The notes: generated by a model from the sequence alone, not told the origin. A DNA stretch of 64,000 nt from an uncultured Oscillospiraceae bacterium (GCA_964387095.1 CAYLVH010000001.1:1103-65102), one strand, 5' to 3'. Counted from the first letter of the stretch, positions 3,600-15,505 are shown. Translations and numbers: made by a program.

Positions 3600-3630
3600 G
3601 CGCAGAACGTAACCCGTTCTGCGCTCTTTT
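3600..3630. terminator. bidirectional intrinsic terminator between the MATE remnant and the MBL gene
   Basis: A perfect 10-bp stem GCGCAGAACG / CGTTCTGCGC (3600-3609 / 3615-3624) is followed by TCTTTT. Confidence 0.75.
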
Positions 3631-9884: not shown

Positions 9885-10160
9885 AAAAAGACAGCCTTCA
9901 TCCCCCTTTAGGACGAATGCTGTCAGATCCGCGGTACCACCTAAATTACTTACCTTCACTGGTAAGTCCCTCACACTCTCTGCAAGTGCTGACCCTTTAA
10001 CGCAGAGATACGGCGCACCTACTGCCCGCCCAATGGCAGCGGGGTTCAGATTGCGGCTCGCGGGTGTTCGTTCCCATGGCCTCCGCACAGGGCTTCCACC
10101 GTCCCCCGCTCGCTTTGACTTTGTTCCATGGTACTTTTCCCGGTCAATGCCTTTATAGTG
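9885..10160 (-). promoter_or_regulatory. T-box leader (Asn-type) of asnS
   Basis: On the minus strand: AGCGAGC...GACGGTGGAAGCC, GAACGAACACCCGCGAG (AAC at 10068-10066), the T-box AATTTAGGTGGTACCGCG (9947-9930), and a terminator ending in a U-run (9889-9885). Confidence 0.85.
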
Positions 10161-10275: not shown

Positions 10276-10304
10276 TTGACAATTCCGGCTATTTTATGTA
10301 AAAT
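10276..10304 (+). promoter_or_regulatory. promoter TTGACA-17-TAAAAT for the ATP-grasp operon
   Basis: TTGACA at 10276-10281 and TAAAAT at 10299-10304, divergent from the asnS promoter. Confidence 0.7.
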
Positions 10305-10315
10305 TCAGAAAAGGG

Positions 10316-10362
10316 GCGATGGGGCCGCAAATGTTTTGCAACACCATCGCTTTGTCTTTTTT
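10316..10362 (+). promoter_or_regulatory. terminator-like hairpin plus U-tract in the 5' UTR of the ATP-grasp operon
   Basis: GCGATGG (10316-10322) pairs with CCATCGC (10344-10350), with an inner GCAAA/TTTGC stem. TTTGTCTTTTTT follows, directly before the AGGAGG at 10363-10368. Confidence 0.45.
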
Positions 10363-10375
10363 AGGAGGAAACGAT

Positions 10376-11686
10376 ATGGACAAACTGGTTCAAGATGCGG
10401 GACGGATCAACCAGCAGCTGGCGCGGTATGGTGTGAAGTTTGGCATCTATAAAAACGGTACGTTCAATGAACGGCTGTTTCCCTTTGATCCCCTGCCTCG
10501 GGTGATTACCAAGGAGGAGTTTGAAGTTCTGGATCGGGGCCTGGTGCAGCGTGTCACCGCTCTGAATTCGTTTTTAAAGGATATTTACGGGGAGAAAAAG
10601 ATCATCTCCGACGGTGTTGTCCCGCCGGACTTCGCCTTTGCGGGCACCGGCTATCTGACCCCCTGCGAAGGGATTACCCCTCCCAAAGGTATTTATAGCC
10701 ACATCTCCGGCATTGACCTGGTGCAGGCCAAGGACGGAAACTGGTTCATCCTGGAGGACAACCTGAGGATCCCCTCAGGCGCCTCCTATCCCCTGATCGC
10801 CCGCAACCTCTGCCGCCGGGCGTCCCCAGACACCTTCCGCCGGCACCACGTTGTGGACAACCGCAATTACGGCAAAATGCTGTGGGACCTGATGAACTAT
10901 GTGAACTGCGGCGGTATCAACGTGATCTTAACCCCCGGTCGCTACAACGCCGCCTATTTTGAGCATTCCTATCTGGCCGAAAAGAGCGGCGTCGCCTTGG
11001 CGGAACCCGGTGACCTGCATGTGGAGGACAACGTGCTCTACTACGATGGCAACGCGGGAAAGCAGCGGGTGGGCACCCTTTACCGCCGCCTCAGTGACGA
11101 ATATCTGGACCCTGTCACCTTCCTGCCTGAGTCCCTGATTGGCGTTCCCAACCTGATGAGTGCTTACCGGGCCGGAAATGTGGCCATCCTCAACGCCCCT
11201 GGCAATGGCGTGGCCGATGACAAGGGCATTTACTACTTCGTCCCCAAGATGATCAAATACTATCTGGGTGAGGATGCCATCCTCAACAACGCCCCTACTT
11301 ACCTCCCCTTCTACGAGGAGGACCGAAATTATGTCCTTGAAAACCTGAGCAATCTGGTCATCAAGGACGTGGCAGAAGCCGGCGGCTACGGCGTGGTCTT
11401 TGGCCGGGATCTGACGAAGGTGCAGCTGGAAGCCTTTGCAGACACCATCCGCAGTGAACCCCGCCGCTTCATCGCCCAGGAGGTCATCGACTTCCAGGAT
11501 CTGCCGGTTATGGACAACGGCAAGGAGTCCCCCCGCAAGGCGGATCTGCGGGCCTTTGTCCTCTCCGGGAAAACCGTCAAGGTCTGGCCCTCCGGCCTGA
11601 CCCGTTTCTCCAGCACCTCTGATTCGTTTGTTGTCAATTCTTCTCAGGGAGGAGGCTTTAAAGATACATGGGTACTCTCACGATAA
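10376..11686 (+). CDS. circularly permuted type-2 ATP-grasp protein (COG2308 / DUF404-DUF407 type)
   Basis: ORF track 10319..11686; I moved the start to ATG 10376 (MDKLVQDAG), 7 nt after AGGAGG. Sequences such as GIDLVQAKDGNWFILEDNLRIPSGASYPL and AILNAPGNGVADDKGIYYFVP are typical of this family. Confidence 0.8.
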   Translation: MDKLVQDAGRINQQLARYGVKFGIYKNGTFNERLFPFDPLPRVITKEEFEVLDRGLVQRVTALNSFLKDIYGEKKIISDGVVPPDFAFAGTGYLTPCEGITPPKGIYSHISGIDLVQAKDGNWFILEDNLRIPSGASYPLIARNLCRRASPDTFRRHHVVDNRNYGKMLWDLMNYVNCGGINVILTPGRYNAAYFEHSYLAEKSGVALAEPGDLHVEDNVLYYDGNAGKQRVGTLYRRLSDEYLDPVTFLPESLIGVPNLMSAYRAGNVAILNAPGNGVADDKGIYYFVPKMIKYYLGEDAILNNAPTYLPFYEEDRNYVLENLSNLVIKDVAEAGGYGVVFGRDLTKVQLEAFADTIRSEPRRFIAQEVIDFQDLPVMDNGKESPRKADLRAFVLSGKTVKVWPSGLTRFSSTSDSFVVNSSQGGGFKDTWVLSR

Positions 11687-12345
11687 TCAAGATCAATCAC
11701 CTGTTTTGGCTGGGCCGCTATACCGAACGGGTCTACACCACCCTGCGCTTTATGCTTGAAGTGGGAGACCAGATGATCGACGGTAAGCCTGTGGACTACA
11801 AGTCCATCTGCCGCCACCTGATTATTCCGGACATTTACACCGACGCAGAGGATTTCTGCACCCGTCTGCTCTTCGACAAGTCCAACCCGGACTCCATCCG
11901 CTCGGCCATGTACCGCGCCTATGACAACGCCATTGTGCTGCGGGAAACCCTGAGCACCGAAGCTCTCTCCTATATCTTCCTGGCCCTGGATGACCTGGAT
12001 CAGTCCGCCATCAGCGATGCCCCCGCCCTGTACATGCAGCAGGCCATTGACCACATTCTGGCCTTCCGGGGCAGCTGGGAGGACTACATTGAGGACGACG
12101 ACACCCGCCGGGTCATCAGCCTGGGCACCAACGTAGAACGGATTGACCTTTATCTCCGTTTGGATTATAATCAACCTATGGTGCGCAAAGAGGTCAGCAA
12201 GCTGGTCAACCGGATGTACAAGACCAAGGTTCCCTGTGATCTTGAGCGAATGAAAAAACTGGCAGATGTGCTGCTGATGCCGGAGCATGAGCTGCCCAGT
12301 ACCAAGGAATTCCTGGACTGGGTGGACAACGTCTTCCAGATATAA
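11668..12345 (+). CDS. alpha-E domain protein (COG2307 / DUF403 type)
   Basis: MGTLTIIKINHLFWLGRYTERVYTTLR is the characteristic alpha-E N-terminus. It overlaps the ATP-grasp gene by 19 nt and follows GGAGGAGG. Confidence 0.75.
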   Translation: MGTLTIIKINHLFWLGRYTERVYTTLRFMLEVGDQMIDGKPVDYKSICRHLIIPDIYTDAEDFCTRLLFDKSNPDSIRSAMYRAYDNAIVLRETLSTEALSYIFLALDDLDQSAISDAPALYMQQAIDHILAFRGSWEDYIEDDDTRRVISLGTNVERIDLYLRLDYNQPMVRKEVSKLVNRMYKTKVPCDLERMKKLADVLLMPEHELPSTKEFLDWVDNVFQI

Positions 12346-12408
12346 CTTTGCCACTTTTAAGCTACAATTAAGCTACAATTGTTAAAGGGCCCAAAGGAGG
12401 ACCAATTT

Positions 12409-13167
12409 GTGAGACGTCTGGACTATACCTACCGCACTCACATCGCATTTGATGTGCCGGTCAAGGATCACTATTTCACCCTGCGCTGTCTGCCCCGGGA
12501 AACCCCCACGCAGCACATCGTAACCCAGCGGCTGAGCCTGGAGCCTGATATGGCCTGGACCATGCAGCAGGATGGCTTCGGCAACCAGCTTCAGGTGGGC
12601 AGCTATCGGGAGGAGCATCTGTGCTTTGGCTATACGGCGGAGGGCGTCTCCATTGTGGATCAGTCCATCCCGGATTTCACCCCATGCAGTCCGGTATTCT
12701 ACTCCACCTCCCCGCTGACAAAGCCCGGTCCGGCGCTGACGGCGCTCTATCAGGACCGGGGGAGGGGCCTGTCCCCGGAAAGGCTGATGCATCTGGTTTA
12801 TCAGTCCATCACCTATACCGCCGGTGCCACCGGCGTAAACACCACGGCGGAGGAAGCGCTGGTCCTGGGCAAGGGGGTCTGTCAGGACGAAGCCCATATC
12901 CTGATCTCCCTGTGCCGGATGGCGGGAATTCCCGCCCGCTATGTCTGCGGCCTCTTCATCGGCGAAGGCGCCACCCATGCCTGGGTGGAGGTCTTCCAGG
13001 ACGGCTGCTGGCGGGGGCTGGATCCCACCCGGGATTGCCCTGTGGACGAGGAATATCTGGTGATCTCCTACGGGCGGGATTACTGCGACTGCCCGGTGGA
13101 GCGGGGCGTTTTTCGGGGAAATGCCGGGCAATCCCAAACAGTATTTATGCAGGTAAAAGGCGAGTAA
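12409..13167 (+). CDS. transglutaminase-like cysteine protease family protein
   Basis: ORF track 12379..13167; the likely start is GTG 12409, 8 nt after AGGAGG. It has a Bact_transglu_N-like start (YRTHIAFDVPVKDHYFTLRCLP) and the catalytic core GKGVCQDEAHILISLCRMAGIPARYVCG...THAWVEV...DPT. Confidence 0.8.
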   Translation: MRRLDYTYRTHIAFDVPVKDHYFTLRCLPRETPTQHIVTQRLSLEPDMAWTMQQDGFGNQLQVGSYREEHLCFGYTAEGVSIVDQSIPDFTPCSPVFYSTSPLTKPGPALTALYQDRGRGLSPERLMHLVYQSITYTAGATGVNTTAEEALVLGKGVCQDEAHILISLCRMAGIPARYVCGLFIGEGATHAWVEVFQDGCWRGLDPTRDCPVDEEYLVISYGRDYCDCPVERGVFRGNAGQSQTVFMQVKGE

Positions 13168-13228
13168 ATGGATCGGACTGGCGAAGGTTGTCATCTGCCA
13201 GCCCGATTTTTATATGGAGGAATCATCT

Positions 13229-14167
13229 ATGGAAATAACAGTTGCCTCTGTGATTTTGCCAGTAGGCGAAACGGAGCGCATTATCAAAAACCGCATTCAA
13301 CCGCAAAAGGACAACGACAAGGGCAAGCGGATCTGCATTGTCACCGGCACCCACGGCGATGAGCTGGAGGGCCAATATGTCTGCTGGAAGCTGAGCCGCA
13401 TTTTGCAGGAGGGGATCGAGCACCTCCACGGCACCGTGGACATTTACCCCGCCCTGAATCCCCTGGGCGTCAACACCATCAACCGGGGCGTCCCCGGCTT
13501 TGACTTGGACATGAACCGGATCTTCCCCGGCGACCCCGATGGCACCACCACCCGGTATCTGGCCCACAAGATTATCCAGGATATCTCCGGCGCGGACCTC
13601 TGCATTGACATCCACGCCTCCAACATCTATCTGAGAGAGTTGCCCCAGGCCCGGGTGAATGTGAATACCGCCAAGCAGCTGCTGCCCATGGCAAGGGAAT
13701 TAAATTTGGACTTCATCTGGATTCACGCCGCCTCCACCGTGCTGGAATCCACCTTGGCCTGCTCTCTGAACTCCATCGGCACTCCCACCATTGTGGTGGA
13801 GATGGGCGTAGGCATGCGCATCACCGAGACCTATGGCCGCCAGCTCATCACTGGCATCCTCAACCTGCTGCAAAAGATGGAAATCTGGGATGCACCTGCC
13901 GGCTCCATCCGGGAACCCATCATCAGCAGCGACGGGCATGTCTCCTTTATCAACGCCAATGTCTCCGGCATCTTCCTCCCCCATGTGCTCCATGATGCCA
14001 AGGTCACCGAGGGCCAGGAACTGGGCGTCATCGCTGATCCTGCCAACGGCGACGTCAAGAAGGTCCTGAACAGCCCGGTGGACGGACTGCTGTTCACCCT
14101 GCGGGAGTACCCGGTGGTGGCTCCCGGTTCCCTGATCGCCCGCATTTTAGGAGGTTTAGACGGATGA
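13229..14167 (+). CDS. succinylglutamate desuccinylase / aspartoacylase (AstE/AspA, COG3608) family deacylase, zinc site intact
   Basis: ORF track 13214..14167; ATG 13229 follows GGAGGAA. The zinc-site motifs TGTHGDELEG, CIDIHAS and VVEMG are present. Confidence 0.75.
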   Translation: MEITVASVILPVGETERIIKNRIQPQKDNDKGKRICIVTGTHGDELEGQYVCWKLSRILQEGIEHLHGTVDIYPALNPLGVNTINRGVPGFDLDMNRIFPGDPDGTTTRYLAHKIIQDISGADLCIDIHASNIYLRELPQARVNVNTAKQLLPMARELNLDFIWIHAASTVLESTLACSLNSIGTPTIVVEMGVGMRITETYGRQLITGILNLLQKMEIWDAPAGSIREPIISSDGHVSFINANVSGIFLPHVLHDAKVTEGQELGVIADPANGDVKKVLNSPVDGLLFTLREYPVVAPGSLIARILGGLDG

Positions 14168-15099
14168 AAGAAGACGTTTTATTCACGGTAGACACCCTCT
14201 ACCGCCCTGATTTGGAAATCACGGGCTTCCGCTTCGGGGCAGGGAAAAAGGCCCTGTGTGTGCTGGGCTCCACCCGAGGCAATGAAATTCAGCAGACCTA
14301 CACCTGCGCCAAGCTGGTCAAGACCCTGAAGGGGCTGGAAGCCCAAGGAGCGCTCCGCCCAGGCTTTGAAATTCTGGTGATTCCCACCGTCAACCAGGCC
14401 TCCATAAATGTGGAACGCCGATTCTGGCCCCTGGATAACTCGGACATCAACCGCATGTTCCCCGGCTACGACCAGGGCGAGACCACCCAGCGGATCGCCG
14501 CAAGCCTGTTCAATCTGGTCAAGGACTTTGAGAGCGGCGTCCAGCTGGCCTCCTTCCACATGACCGGCGATTTCCTGCCCCATATCCGCGTGATGCACAC
14601 CGGTTACCAACGGCTGGATCTGGCGGCTCAGTTCGGAATGCCCTACGTGGTGGATCACACCCCCGAACCCTTCGACTCCACCACCCTGAACTACAATTGG
14701 CAGCTCTGGGGCACCAATGCCTTCTCCCTGTACACCAAGGAGACCGGCATCATCGACGAGGATAGCGCCCAAATGGCCGTCCTGGCCATCCTGCGCTTTA
14801 TGAACCGTCAGGGTTGGCTGAAATACCCCGTCCACGGGGGATATGTGTCCTCCAATGTGGAGGACAAGGACATGGTTGCCGTCTTGTCCCCCACCGGGGG
14901 CATCTTCCGCCGCTGCAAACAGCCCGGGGATATGGTCCGCGCCAGCGATGTGCTGGCGGAGATCCTCTCCCCCTACGATGCCTCCATTCAGGGGCAGGTT
15001 CTGGCCACCGTTACCGGTACGGTGTTCTTCGCCCATAAGCGGCCCCTGATCACTGAGCACCAGGTGGCTTTCAATATAATTCGGCAAATGAGATCTTAA
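14164..15099 (+). CDS. AstE/AspA-family paralogue with a substituted zinc ligand (GSTRGNE in place of GTHGxE)
   Basis: Its ATG overlaps the upstream stop (ATGA at 14164-14167) and AGGAGG lies upstream. It has the same length and fold pattern as the preceding gene, but the first zinc His is Arg. Confidence 0.7.
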   Translation: MKEDVLFTVDTLYRPDLEITGFRFGAGKKALCVLGSTRGNEIQQTYTCAKLVKTLKGLEAQGALRPGFEILVIPTVNQASINVERRFWPLDNSDINRMFPGYDQGETTQRIAASLFNLVKDFESGVQLASFHMTGDFLPHIRVMHTGYQRLDLAAQFGMPYVVDHTPEPFDSTTLNYNWQLWGTNAFSLYTKETGIIDEDSAQMAVLAILRFMNRQGWLKYPVHGGYVSSNVEDKDMVAVLSPTGGIFRRCKQPGDMVRASDVLAEILSPYDASIQGQVLATVTGTVFFAHKRPLITEHQVAFNIIRQMRS

Positions 15100-15104
15100 A
15101 ATAT

Positions 15105-15148
15105 GCAAAGACAGGCTGTGGAGCTCCCCTTCCGCAGCCTGTCTTTGC
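15105..15148 (+). terminator. hairpin closing the ATP-grasp operon
   Basis: 14-bp perfect stem GCAAAGACAGGCTG / CAGCCTGTCTTTGC with a 16-nt loop, starting 6 nt after the stop. The U-tail is weak. Confidence 0.6.
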
Positions 15149-15191
15149 AACGCATAGACAAGCCCCCTGCATTTTCCCAAAAAACAGGGGG

Positions 15192-15220
15192 TTGACATTT
15201 CCCCCTTCATGAGCTATAAT
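15192..15220 (+). promoter_or_regulatory. consensus promoter TTGACA-17-TATAAT for the asnB leader
   Basis: TTGACA at 15192-15197 and TATAAT at 15215-15220. Confidence 0.75.
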
Positions 15221-15224
15221 ACAT

Positions 15225-15505
15225 CCTGTCAAAAGCCTTGACCGGGAAAAGTAATGCGGACCGGAGTTTTAGCGAGCAGGGGACGGTGGGAGCCCTGTAC
15301 AATGACCGCACGAACGAACACCCGCGAGCTTCAATCTGAACGCCGCCTCCCGGGTGGTCAGTAGGTGCGACGCATCCCAGCGTTATCAGGGTATGCGCTT
15401 AGTAGAGCGTGAGTGGACTTATCAAGGAGGATAAGTAATTTAGGTGGTACCGCGGAGCTGACAGCATTCGTCCTAAGCAGAAGGATGGGGCTGTCTATTT
15501 TTATA
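15225..15505 (+). promoter_or_regulatory. T-box leader (Asn-type) of asparagine synthase
   Basis: AGCGAGC...GACGGTGGGAGCC, GAACGAACACCCGCGAG (AAC at 15317-15319), the T-box AATTTAGGTGGTACCGCG (15437-15454), and the terminator CTGACAGC...GGCTGTC followed by TATTTTTA. Confidence 0.85.

Follow-up and report, generated by a model that had tools for sequence, protein, structure and literature searches.

Within a 64,000-nucleotide stretch of DNA from an uncultured Oscillospiraceae bacterium (GCA_964387095.1, CAYLVH010000001.1:1103-65102; this whole stretch is hereafter called the window), five genes on the plus strand form a unit that runs from a promoter to a 3' hairpin (10276-15149), and this cluster is a variant of the known, still uncharacterised ATP-grasp/alpha-E/transglutaminase(/Anbu) system. 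The first three genes encode a circularly permuted ATP-grasp amide ligase of 436 amino acids (aa; g1, 10376-11686), a short alpha-E protein of 225 aa (g2, 11668-12345), and a transglutaminase-like cysteine peptidase (g3, 12409-13167). They are followed by the genes of an AstE/AspA-fold zinc amidohydrolase of 312 aa that belongs to the DoeB-like (COG3608) group (g4, 13229-14167) and of a g4 paralog of 311 aa that is predicted to be catalytically dead (g5, 14164-15099). The five genes are one co-inherited module, and three of its traits are not seen in the classical form of the system: the AstE-type pair with one apparently active and one apparently dead member, the truncated alpha-E protein, and a hairpin leader close to the promoter. 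Many bacterial phyla have the ATP-grasp/alpha-E/transglutaminase triad, Mycobacterium tuberculosis (Rv2411c-Rv2409c) being one of the carriers, and no substrate has been assigned to it since it was described in 2008-2009. Its description reportedly goes back to Iyer et al. 2009, together with Valas & Bourne 2008.

The co-inheritance is evident from the gene neighbourhoods. One genome per GTDB species was scanned with the ligase alignment, and at least 571 loci carry this ligase subtype, the carriers being gut and rumen anaerobes that include Faecalibacterium, Subdoligranulum, Gemmiger, Ruminococcus, Lachnospiraceae, Negativicutes, and gut Treponema. Gene content was then classified by tblastn with the window proteins in the best 80 of these loci, which come from Oscillospiraceae, Lachnospiraceae, Ruminococcus, Negativicutes (Succiniclasticum, Anaerovibrio), gut Treponema, and Bulleidia. 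All five genes are present in 70 of the 76 evaluable loci, amid unrelated flanking genes: 66 of the 80 loci have the colinear order g1-g2-g3-g4-g5, and in 4 the g5-g4 pair is divergent from g1-g2-g3. The remaining loci are cut at a contig end (4 loci), have the triad without the AstE pair (3 loci; L014, L015, L048), or lack g3 (3 loci; L044, L045, L057). Reverse look-ups that started from g4 or g5 homologues reached the cluster in five of five cases, each time with different flanking genes, and in two of these five (L088 and L089) g3/g4 and g4/g5 overlap by 4 nucleotides (nt) each. Furthermore, 73 loci have g5, and all of these except L057 have g4 as well (72 loci); in L051 and L074, g4 lies at the contig end. 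Complete clusters are also found in cultured strains, namely Faecalicatena contorta ET55 (L064), Succiniclasticum ruminis DSM 9236 (L050), and Anaerovibrio slackiae WCA-693-APC-5D-A (L049). Such a survey had been set beforehand as the test of the association between the triad and the AstE genes that was put forward in the first-pass annotation of this DNA, and the association withstood it.

All five family assignments made at that stage, namely the COG2308/COG2307/COG1305 triad and two COG3608-type proteins, are confirmed by Pfam. The ligase g1 matches PF14403 (E 1.5e-138) and PF04174 (E 5.4e-122) over the full profiles and aligns full-length to PDB 3N6X (E 5.7e-118). It is the most conserved of the five genes, with a median identity of 72% across the 80 loci, and it is never missing; homologues on proteobacterial, Deinococcus, and Paenibacillus replicons mostly share 40-46% identity with it, and a few share 28-31%. 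This level of conservation across phyla and towards distant homologues would fit a universal small substrate. The alpha-E protein g2 matches PF04168 (E 6e-22, above the 20.8-bit cut-off) only over profile positions 7-164 of 294, which is the N-terminal half, and its motifs WLGRYxER and ER are invariant. The 120 g2 homologues listed are all 220-230 aa long, and the alpha-E proteins of the Paracoccus and Paenibacillus loci have 319-327 aa; by its sequence, g2 is a truncated alpha-E form. Its AlphaFold2 model is all-helical, with a predicted local distance difference test score (pLDDT) of 93, and a comparison of the model with the PDB gave no significant neighbour and no functional lead (best match E 0.9, template modelling score (TM) of at most 0.38). 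The peptidase g3 matches PF08379 (Bact_transglu_N, E 4e-13) and PF01841 (Transglut_core, E 1.3e-17), both above the cut-offs, as well as PDB 3ISR (E 3.9e-13), and its Cys168, His200, and Asp215 (numbering of the 262-aa open reading frame, ORF) are at least 90% conserved in 61 orthologs.

In the AstE/AspA pair, both proteins match PF24827 (AstE_AspA_cat; g4 E 2.5e-25, g5 E 2.9e-13), and an HHalign comparison relates the g4 family to the g5 family over the full length with a probability of 99.8% at 19% identity. In g4, the residues H42, E45, N96-R97, H129, and E191 are invariant in 26 and in 53 orthologs, the His-Glu-His zinc ligands and the catalytic Glu align with their equivalents in 2QJ8, 3CDX, and DoeB, and the family profile matches 2QJ8, 3CDX, 3NA6, and 6TWL/6TWM over the full length. 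The match of the g4 profile to the CphZ structures 8EIN/8EIP (E 3e-6) covers residues 19-88 only. Neither protein reaches a curated NCBIfam cut-off for DoeB (TIGR02994), AstE (NF003706), or aspartoacylase (NF002601): g4 scores 47.9 bits against the required 402.7 for TIGR02994 and 17.6 against 180, and g5 scores 35.6 against 402.7 and 17 against 170. In g5, R38 stands in place of the first zinc His, A129 in place of the second, and Y190 in place of the catalytic Glu; 59 orthologs and the full-length g5-type representatives at 50% clustering show these losses without exception or nearly so. The first-pass annotation had counted three potential amidohydrolases in the operon, and the loss of two zinc His residues and the catalytic Glu in g5 reduces this number to two, with g4 as the predicted sole zinc-competent AstE-fold member.

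The g5 protein nevertheless has the marks of a maintained pseudoenzyme, not of a decaying gene. It keeps the N96-R97 pair, has many invariant motifs of its own, and is conserved across phyla with a median identity of 50%; its family is compact, with 92 representatives at E < 1e-30 among 1.8 billion. The AlphaFold2 model of g5 (pLDDT 86) superposes with a TM of about 0.7 on 3CDX, DoeB, and CphZ (0.65-0.73 for CphZ), and carboxypeptidase B and TAFI are also among the structural matches. The stretch of g5 from residue 81 to 103 (window about 14404-14472, RFW..DNTDINRMFPGY) is its most invariant and at the same time the least confident in the model (pLDDT about 50), which would fit a loop that becomes ordered only upon partner or ligand binding. 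CphZ is a homodimer that binds zinc through an H-H-E triad and has an essential Glu (PMC9974463). From this precedent, the strict co-occurrence, and the overlapping genes, we predict a g4-g5 heteromer. Two long g5 homologues, P0127 (515 aa) and P0128 (477 aa), were considered as Rosetta-stone fusions and rejected, as they carry exact internal self-repeats and represent assembly or gene-calling artefacts.

The third trait is the leader of g1. In the window, a sigma-70-type promoter (TTGACA-17-TAAAAT, 11/12 consensus positions, 10276-10304, plus strand) is followed by a terminator-like hairpin (10315-10351) with a U-rich run (10352-10362) and only then by the ribosome-binding site AGGAGG of g1 (10363-10368). 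This arrangement of promoter, hairpin, and T-run was counted locus by locus against a control set: it is found in 54 of 81 g1 leaders (window and loci L001-L084) and in 7 of 478 regions upstream of control ORFs from the same loci. The g1 promoters of most related loci are near-consensus, mostly with 10-12 of 12 positions; the hairpin, often of at least 13-14 bp, typically begins 12-17 nt 3' of the -10 hexamer (range about 7-30 nt), a T-run comes after it, and the g1 start codon lies 22-60 nt beyond the hairpin and T-run in most loci. The window hairpin has a centroid fold of about -17 kcal/mol (whole leader z -2.0). For the leaders of L003 and L008, the folding energies are -40 kcal/mol (z -8.7) and -32 kcal/mol (z -4.3), respectively. 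When 50 of the leader hairpins were aligned with MAFFT for RNAalifold, those that differ in length were misaligned. The sequence 5' of the leader stem is too short for an aptamer or an alternative antiterminator, and Rfam covariance models gave a single chance-level match in the g1 leader (sau-63, 11.4 bits against a gathering score of 100). A search for CodY boxes in the g1 promoters yielded a weak excess of sites with four mismatches (21 observed, about 10 expected). A second copy of the promoter-hairpin cassette was sought within the window as a sign of a regulon, and only a terminator between convergent genes near 3600 was found. The g1 leader is probably a promoter-proximal attenuator.

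How the five proteins could work together can be outlined from the chemistry of their families. Our tentative reading, to which we give slightly less than even weight, is that the module makes and breaks the amide bond of a non-ribosomal amino-acid oligomer or conjugate, in a logic similar to that of cyanophycin metabolism, the nearest functioning precedent, in which CphZ completes the degradation of the polymer. The ligase g1, probably in a 1:1 complex with g2 because the two genes overlap in most loci, would couple an amino acid through its amino group to a carboxylate at the expense of ATP, and the product would end in a residue with a free alpha-carboxylate. The Cys-His-Asp peptidase g3 would cut this product internally or detach it from a carrier, and the small N-acyl-amino acid or dipeptide so formed would be hydrolysed by g4. 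For this, g4 would need g5 as a partner without catalytic activity, either a heterodimer subunit or a substrate-binding subunit, with its retained Asn-Arg carboxylate-binding motif, and the terminator hairpin close to the promoter would gate expression of the operon. The substrates of the characterised AstE/AspA-fold enzymes—AstE, aspartoacylase, aminoacylase 3, and the two that are nearest to g4 and g5 in fold, DoeB and CphZ—are small N-acyl amino acids or dipeptides whose alpha-carboxylate is free, and it is this chemistry of the g4 family that would constrain the product to end in such a residue. With regard to the physiological context, the classical triad of Burkholderia cenocepacia is activated by NtrC and sigma-54 under nitrogen limitation (PMC5491218), and triad domains co-vary with urea-metabolism domains in marine metagenomes (PMC3597751). 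We prefer a metabolite or oligomer over a protein tag on the basis of the small substrates of AstE-fold enzymes, the lack of a target gene, the conservation of the ligase across phyla, and the link to nitrogen limitation, none of which is decisive. The first-pass annotation had already leaned towards a small molecule and against protein tagging; we share this leaning on other grounds, with the same reservation.

Several points weigh against the oligomer or conjugate cycle. All of its steps are drawn from family chemistry, and g4 is remote from the characterised enzymes (E 1e-10 to 1e-19 with the family profile), so that their specificity is not transferable to it. The g4-g5 complex is predicted solely from co-occurrence and the dimeric precedent. 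The cluster holds no transporter or precursor-supply gene, and the leader hairpin could be a stabiliser of the mRNA 5' end rather than a terminator. Furthermore, the frequent partner Anbu is proteasome-like, and transglutaminase-like domains usually act on proteins. Finally, the published prediction for the triad is peptide tagging of proteins, in which the peptidase reverses the peptide tags added by the ligase, by analogy to TTL enzymes (summarised in PMC3495828).

The whole cluster could also be explained, with a somewhat lower likelihood, by the Iyer-Aravind model, in which proteins or peptides are tagged reversibly. Similar to TTLL/CCP on tubulin or RimK on ribosomal protein S6, g1 and g2 would add at least one amino acid to a protein C-terminus or an acidic side chain, g3 would strip the whole tag, and g4/g5 would trim the tag from its C-terminal end like an M14 carboxypeptidase, with g5 as the protein-binding receptor. 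Besides having been predicted for the triad in print (PMC3495828; PMC5666114), tagging agrees with the presence of the proteasome homologue Anbu in the same slot of the classical operon, with the structural clan that AstE-fold proteins share with M14 carboxypeptidases such as the above-mentioned carboxypeptidase B and TAFI, with a conserved dead paralog, which suits a binding or adaptor role, and with the bacterial precedent of RimK/RimB. It is difficult to reconcile, however, with the fact that no candidate target gene is conserved in or beside a cluster that is common to several phyla, and with the circumstantial evidence, which ties the classical triad to nitrogen limitation. The characterised AstE/AspA-fold enzymes act on small molecules and are not known to act on proteins. 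An unlikely explanation is that of a purely degradative or salvage module, in which g3 and g4/g5 would break imported or turnover-derived unusual peptides (gamma-glutamyl, beta-aspartyl) or N-acyl amino acids, and the ATP-grasp protein would be separate or accessory. The carriers are indeed gut and rumen anaerobes that live on peptides, CphZ homologues occur in bacteria without cyanophycin synthesis (PMC9974463), and L044 and L045 keep g1-g2-g4-g5 in the absence of g3, but none of the loci lacks g1, the most conserved gene, in contrast to the hydrolase genes, which a few have lost; a purely catabolic module would have no use for an ATP-dependent ligase, and no transporter is encoded in the cluster.

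The first-pass annotation itself had favoured a small-molecule N-acyl or isopeptidyl Asp/Glu cycle tied to aspS, asnS, and asnB, with one ligase and three active amidohydrolases. AstE-fold enzymes do cleave N-acyl Asp/Glu-type substrates, and the operon lies between T-box-controlled asnS and asnB and beside aspS. We nevertheless consider this version very unlikely: asnB follows the cluster only in L005, a relative with 92% identity, the other loci of the 80 have no adjacent aspS, asnS, or asnB, the operon is preceded by a promoter and leader of its own and each of the two asn genes by a T-box, zinc-dependent hydrolysis is excluded for g5, and no test result favours Asp or Glu over other residues. 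The functional linkage to Asn/Asp genes, for which the tRNA-charging neighbours had been taken as a clue, is thus rejected by the neighbourhood survey; because asnB recurs 3' of the cluster only in L005, the Asn/Asp context is incidental. The same survey refutes a chance adjacency of an ordinary triad and an unrelated deacylase pair, which we regard as extremely improbable. The gaps of 61-63 nt in the window, the weak hairpin between g3 and g4, and the three loci with the triad alone might have suggested it; against this stand the recurrence of all five genes despite unrelated flanks, the 4-nt overlap of g3 and g4 in L088 and L089, and the reverse look-ups, which without exception led to a neighbouring triad. 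A role in anti-phage defence was rejected as well, since none of the five proteins matched a PADLOC family at E <= 0.01.

In a more far-reaching form of the reversible amino-acid cycle, the cluster would be a self-contained cross-phylum cassette that runs a novel reversible ligation of amino acids, in which g5 serves as the substrate receptor of an AstE-fold hydrolase and a new, aptamer-free promoter-proximal attenuator switches the operon. We consider this improbable as a whole; if it were true, solving the variant would reveal the product of the widespread ATP-grasp/alpha-E/transglutaminase(/Anbu) systems. The variant is also of practical value. Many gut commensals carry it, and it is easier to approach by experiment than the classical form, as a small AstE-type zinc hydrolase in place of the large, hard-to-assay Anbu particle gives a simple handle in vitro. 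The loci with altered gene content (L044, L045, L057, L014, L015, L048) are natural "knockouts" that are useful for comparative metabolomics, and the conserved dead paralog and the promoter-proximal hairpin leader each merit study by themselves.

With regard to the layout of the operon in the window, the start at 10276 given in the first-pass annotation is the -35 hexamer of the promoter, and the end given at 15148 lies within 1 nt of the 3' end of the terminal hairpin. The starts of three genes were revised by their ribosome-binding sites: g1 starts with the ATG at 10376 after AGGAGG and not at 10319, g3 starts with the GTG at 12409 after AAAGGAGG, in agreement with the ortholog alignment, where the mechanical ORF begins at 12379, and g4 starts with the ATG at 13229, which gives the 312-aa form that is also found in the protein database. 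Overlaps are limited to g1/g2 (19 nt, 11668-11686) and g4/g5 (ATGA, 14164-14167), both of which had been described correctly before, and gaps of 63 and 61 nt separate g2 from g3 and g3 from g4. In the window, the triad is therefore not directly coupled to the AstE pair by an overlap, whereas g3/g4 and g4/g5 do overlap in L088 and L089. The hairpin between g3 and g4 (13170-13214, plus strand, with the T-run TTTTTAT) folds at -20.5 kcal/mol with a z of -1.1, and 25 of 200 shuffles fold at least as well; it could be a weak attenuator and is probably without significance. As an operon-splitting terminator it was rejected because of this z and its lack of conservation, given that g3 and g4 overlap in the two loci mentioned, and the single operon without a conserved internal terminator, as initially proposed, stands. 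In the window organism, the hairpin could reduce the expression of g4/g5 relative to g1-g3. The operon ends with a 3' hairpin that has a 20-bp stem and no U-tail (15104-15149, plus strand; -36.5 kcal/mol, z -8.5), for which none of 200 shuffles folds equally well.

The genes that flank the operon in the window are aspS, a divergent T-box-controlled asnS, and a T-box-controlled asnB, which lies 3' of the operon and has its own promoter and T-box leader (15192-15478). The T-box leaders of asnS (9908-10154, minus strand) and asnB (15231-15476, plus strand) are inverted copies with 78-90% identity that flank the operon, and this position between two paralogous Asn-type leaders is seen again only in L005. 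Elsewhere in the window, a molybdenum cofactor riboswitch (RF01055, 50313-50442, minus strand, 70.2 bits, E 6.7e-15) is unrelated to the operon. Around the 80 loci, a conserved sixth gene was sought and none was found. The commonest additional neighbour encodes a FUSC_2/ArAE membrane domain fused to a Cof-type HAD hydrolase (PF13515/PF06081 and PF08282) and is present in 11 loci (L017, at 12899-14179, L019, L022, L026, L028, L032, L036, L043, L046, L080, and L081). It adjoins the cluster in Treponema and in some Ruminococcus and Huintestinicola loci and may, in these lineages, act as a sixth component, for example as an exporter or a phosphatase. Among the loci without g3, L044 and L045 lack the transglutaminase gene only, and L057, with g1-g2-g5, looks degenerate.

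Among the known systems that resemble the cluster, cyanophycin metabolism shares with it an ATP-dependent ligase (CphA1 contains an ATP-grasp domain), an endopeptidase, and an AstE-fold zinc hydrolase, CphZ, that acts on a small isopeptide with a free alpha-carboxylate; the CphZ genes cluster with those of cyanophycin synthetase and cyanophycinase (PMC9974463), and CphZ is among the closest solved folds to g5. In contrast, the ligase of the cluster is of the circularly permuted COG2308 type and lacks a Mur-like domain, its endopeptidase is a cysteine transglutaminase-like enzyme and not an S51 serine peptidase, and a dead paralog is present where CphZ is homodimeric. The 80 loci contain no cphA or cphB genes. 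The resemblance is thus limited to the fold and the logic of the pathway, without close similarity to AbCphZ or PaAotO, and nothing indicates an Asp/Arg-based product. The nearest group to g4 and g5 in sequence and fold consists of DoeB/EutE, the N-alpha-acetyl-L-2,4-diaminobutyrate deacetylase of ectoine catabolism (6TWL, 6TWM), and the uncharacterised structures 3CDX, 2QJ8, and 3NA6; g4 matches them over its full length with zinc ligands and catalytic Glu aligned, but its score on TIGR02994 shows that it is not an ortholog of DoeB, and no ectoine genes are nearby.

The TTLL/CCP (M14) system of tubulin and the bacterial RimK/RimB likewise combine an ATP-grasp "writer" with peptidase "erasers", and the metallocarboxypeptidase clan trims residues with a free carboxylate; however, their ligases belong to other ATP-grasp families, and no target protein is known for the cluster. 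To our knowledge, no member of the AstE branch acts on proteins. Glutathionylspermidine synthetase/amidase comes into view as the depositors of 3N6X labelled the ligase family "putative glutathionylspermidine synthase", which is a structural-genomics annotation only. GspS pairs its ligase with a papain-fold amidase that reverses the reaction, whereas the cluster has neither a CHAP domain nor a fusion, and nothing in it indicates glutathione or polyamines.

The system to which the cluster belongs remains the classical triad. We found no experimental assignment of the function of this triad in the literature, in line with the view taken at the outset that it has no assigned substrate, and an April 2026 preprint excludes Rv2411c by experiment as the GABA-trehalose synthetase, this protein being otherwise uncharacterised. 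The five-gene combination had been considered new, and we found no paper that describes it, with the limit that Iyer et al. 2009 is known to us only via citing papers and may already mention AstE. The classical operon comprises the ligase, alpha-E, the transglutaminase-like peptidase, and often Anbu (PMC3235984; PMC5666114). At the locus that we examined on a Paracoccus replicon (L085), the fourth gene after the triad encodes the proteasome-family protein Anbu, a Paenibacillus replicon has the triad only, and no Anbu (PF00227) is found in the window cluster. The cluster and the classical system have the same first three genes in the same order, coupled g1/g2, the ER motifs, and the Cys-His-Asp triad. 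They differ in that the presumed active/dead AstE pair stands downstream of the transglutaminase gene, where Anbu sits in Paracoccus L085 as the sole Anbu-type example examined, in that the alpha-E protein has about 225 aa as opposed to the 319-327 aa in Paracoccus and Paenibacillus, and in that the carriers are gut and rumen anaerobes, in which the operon is preceded by a conserved promoter-proximal hairpin leader.

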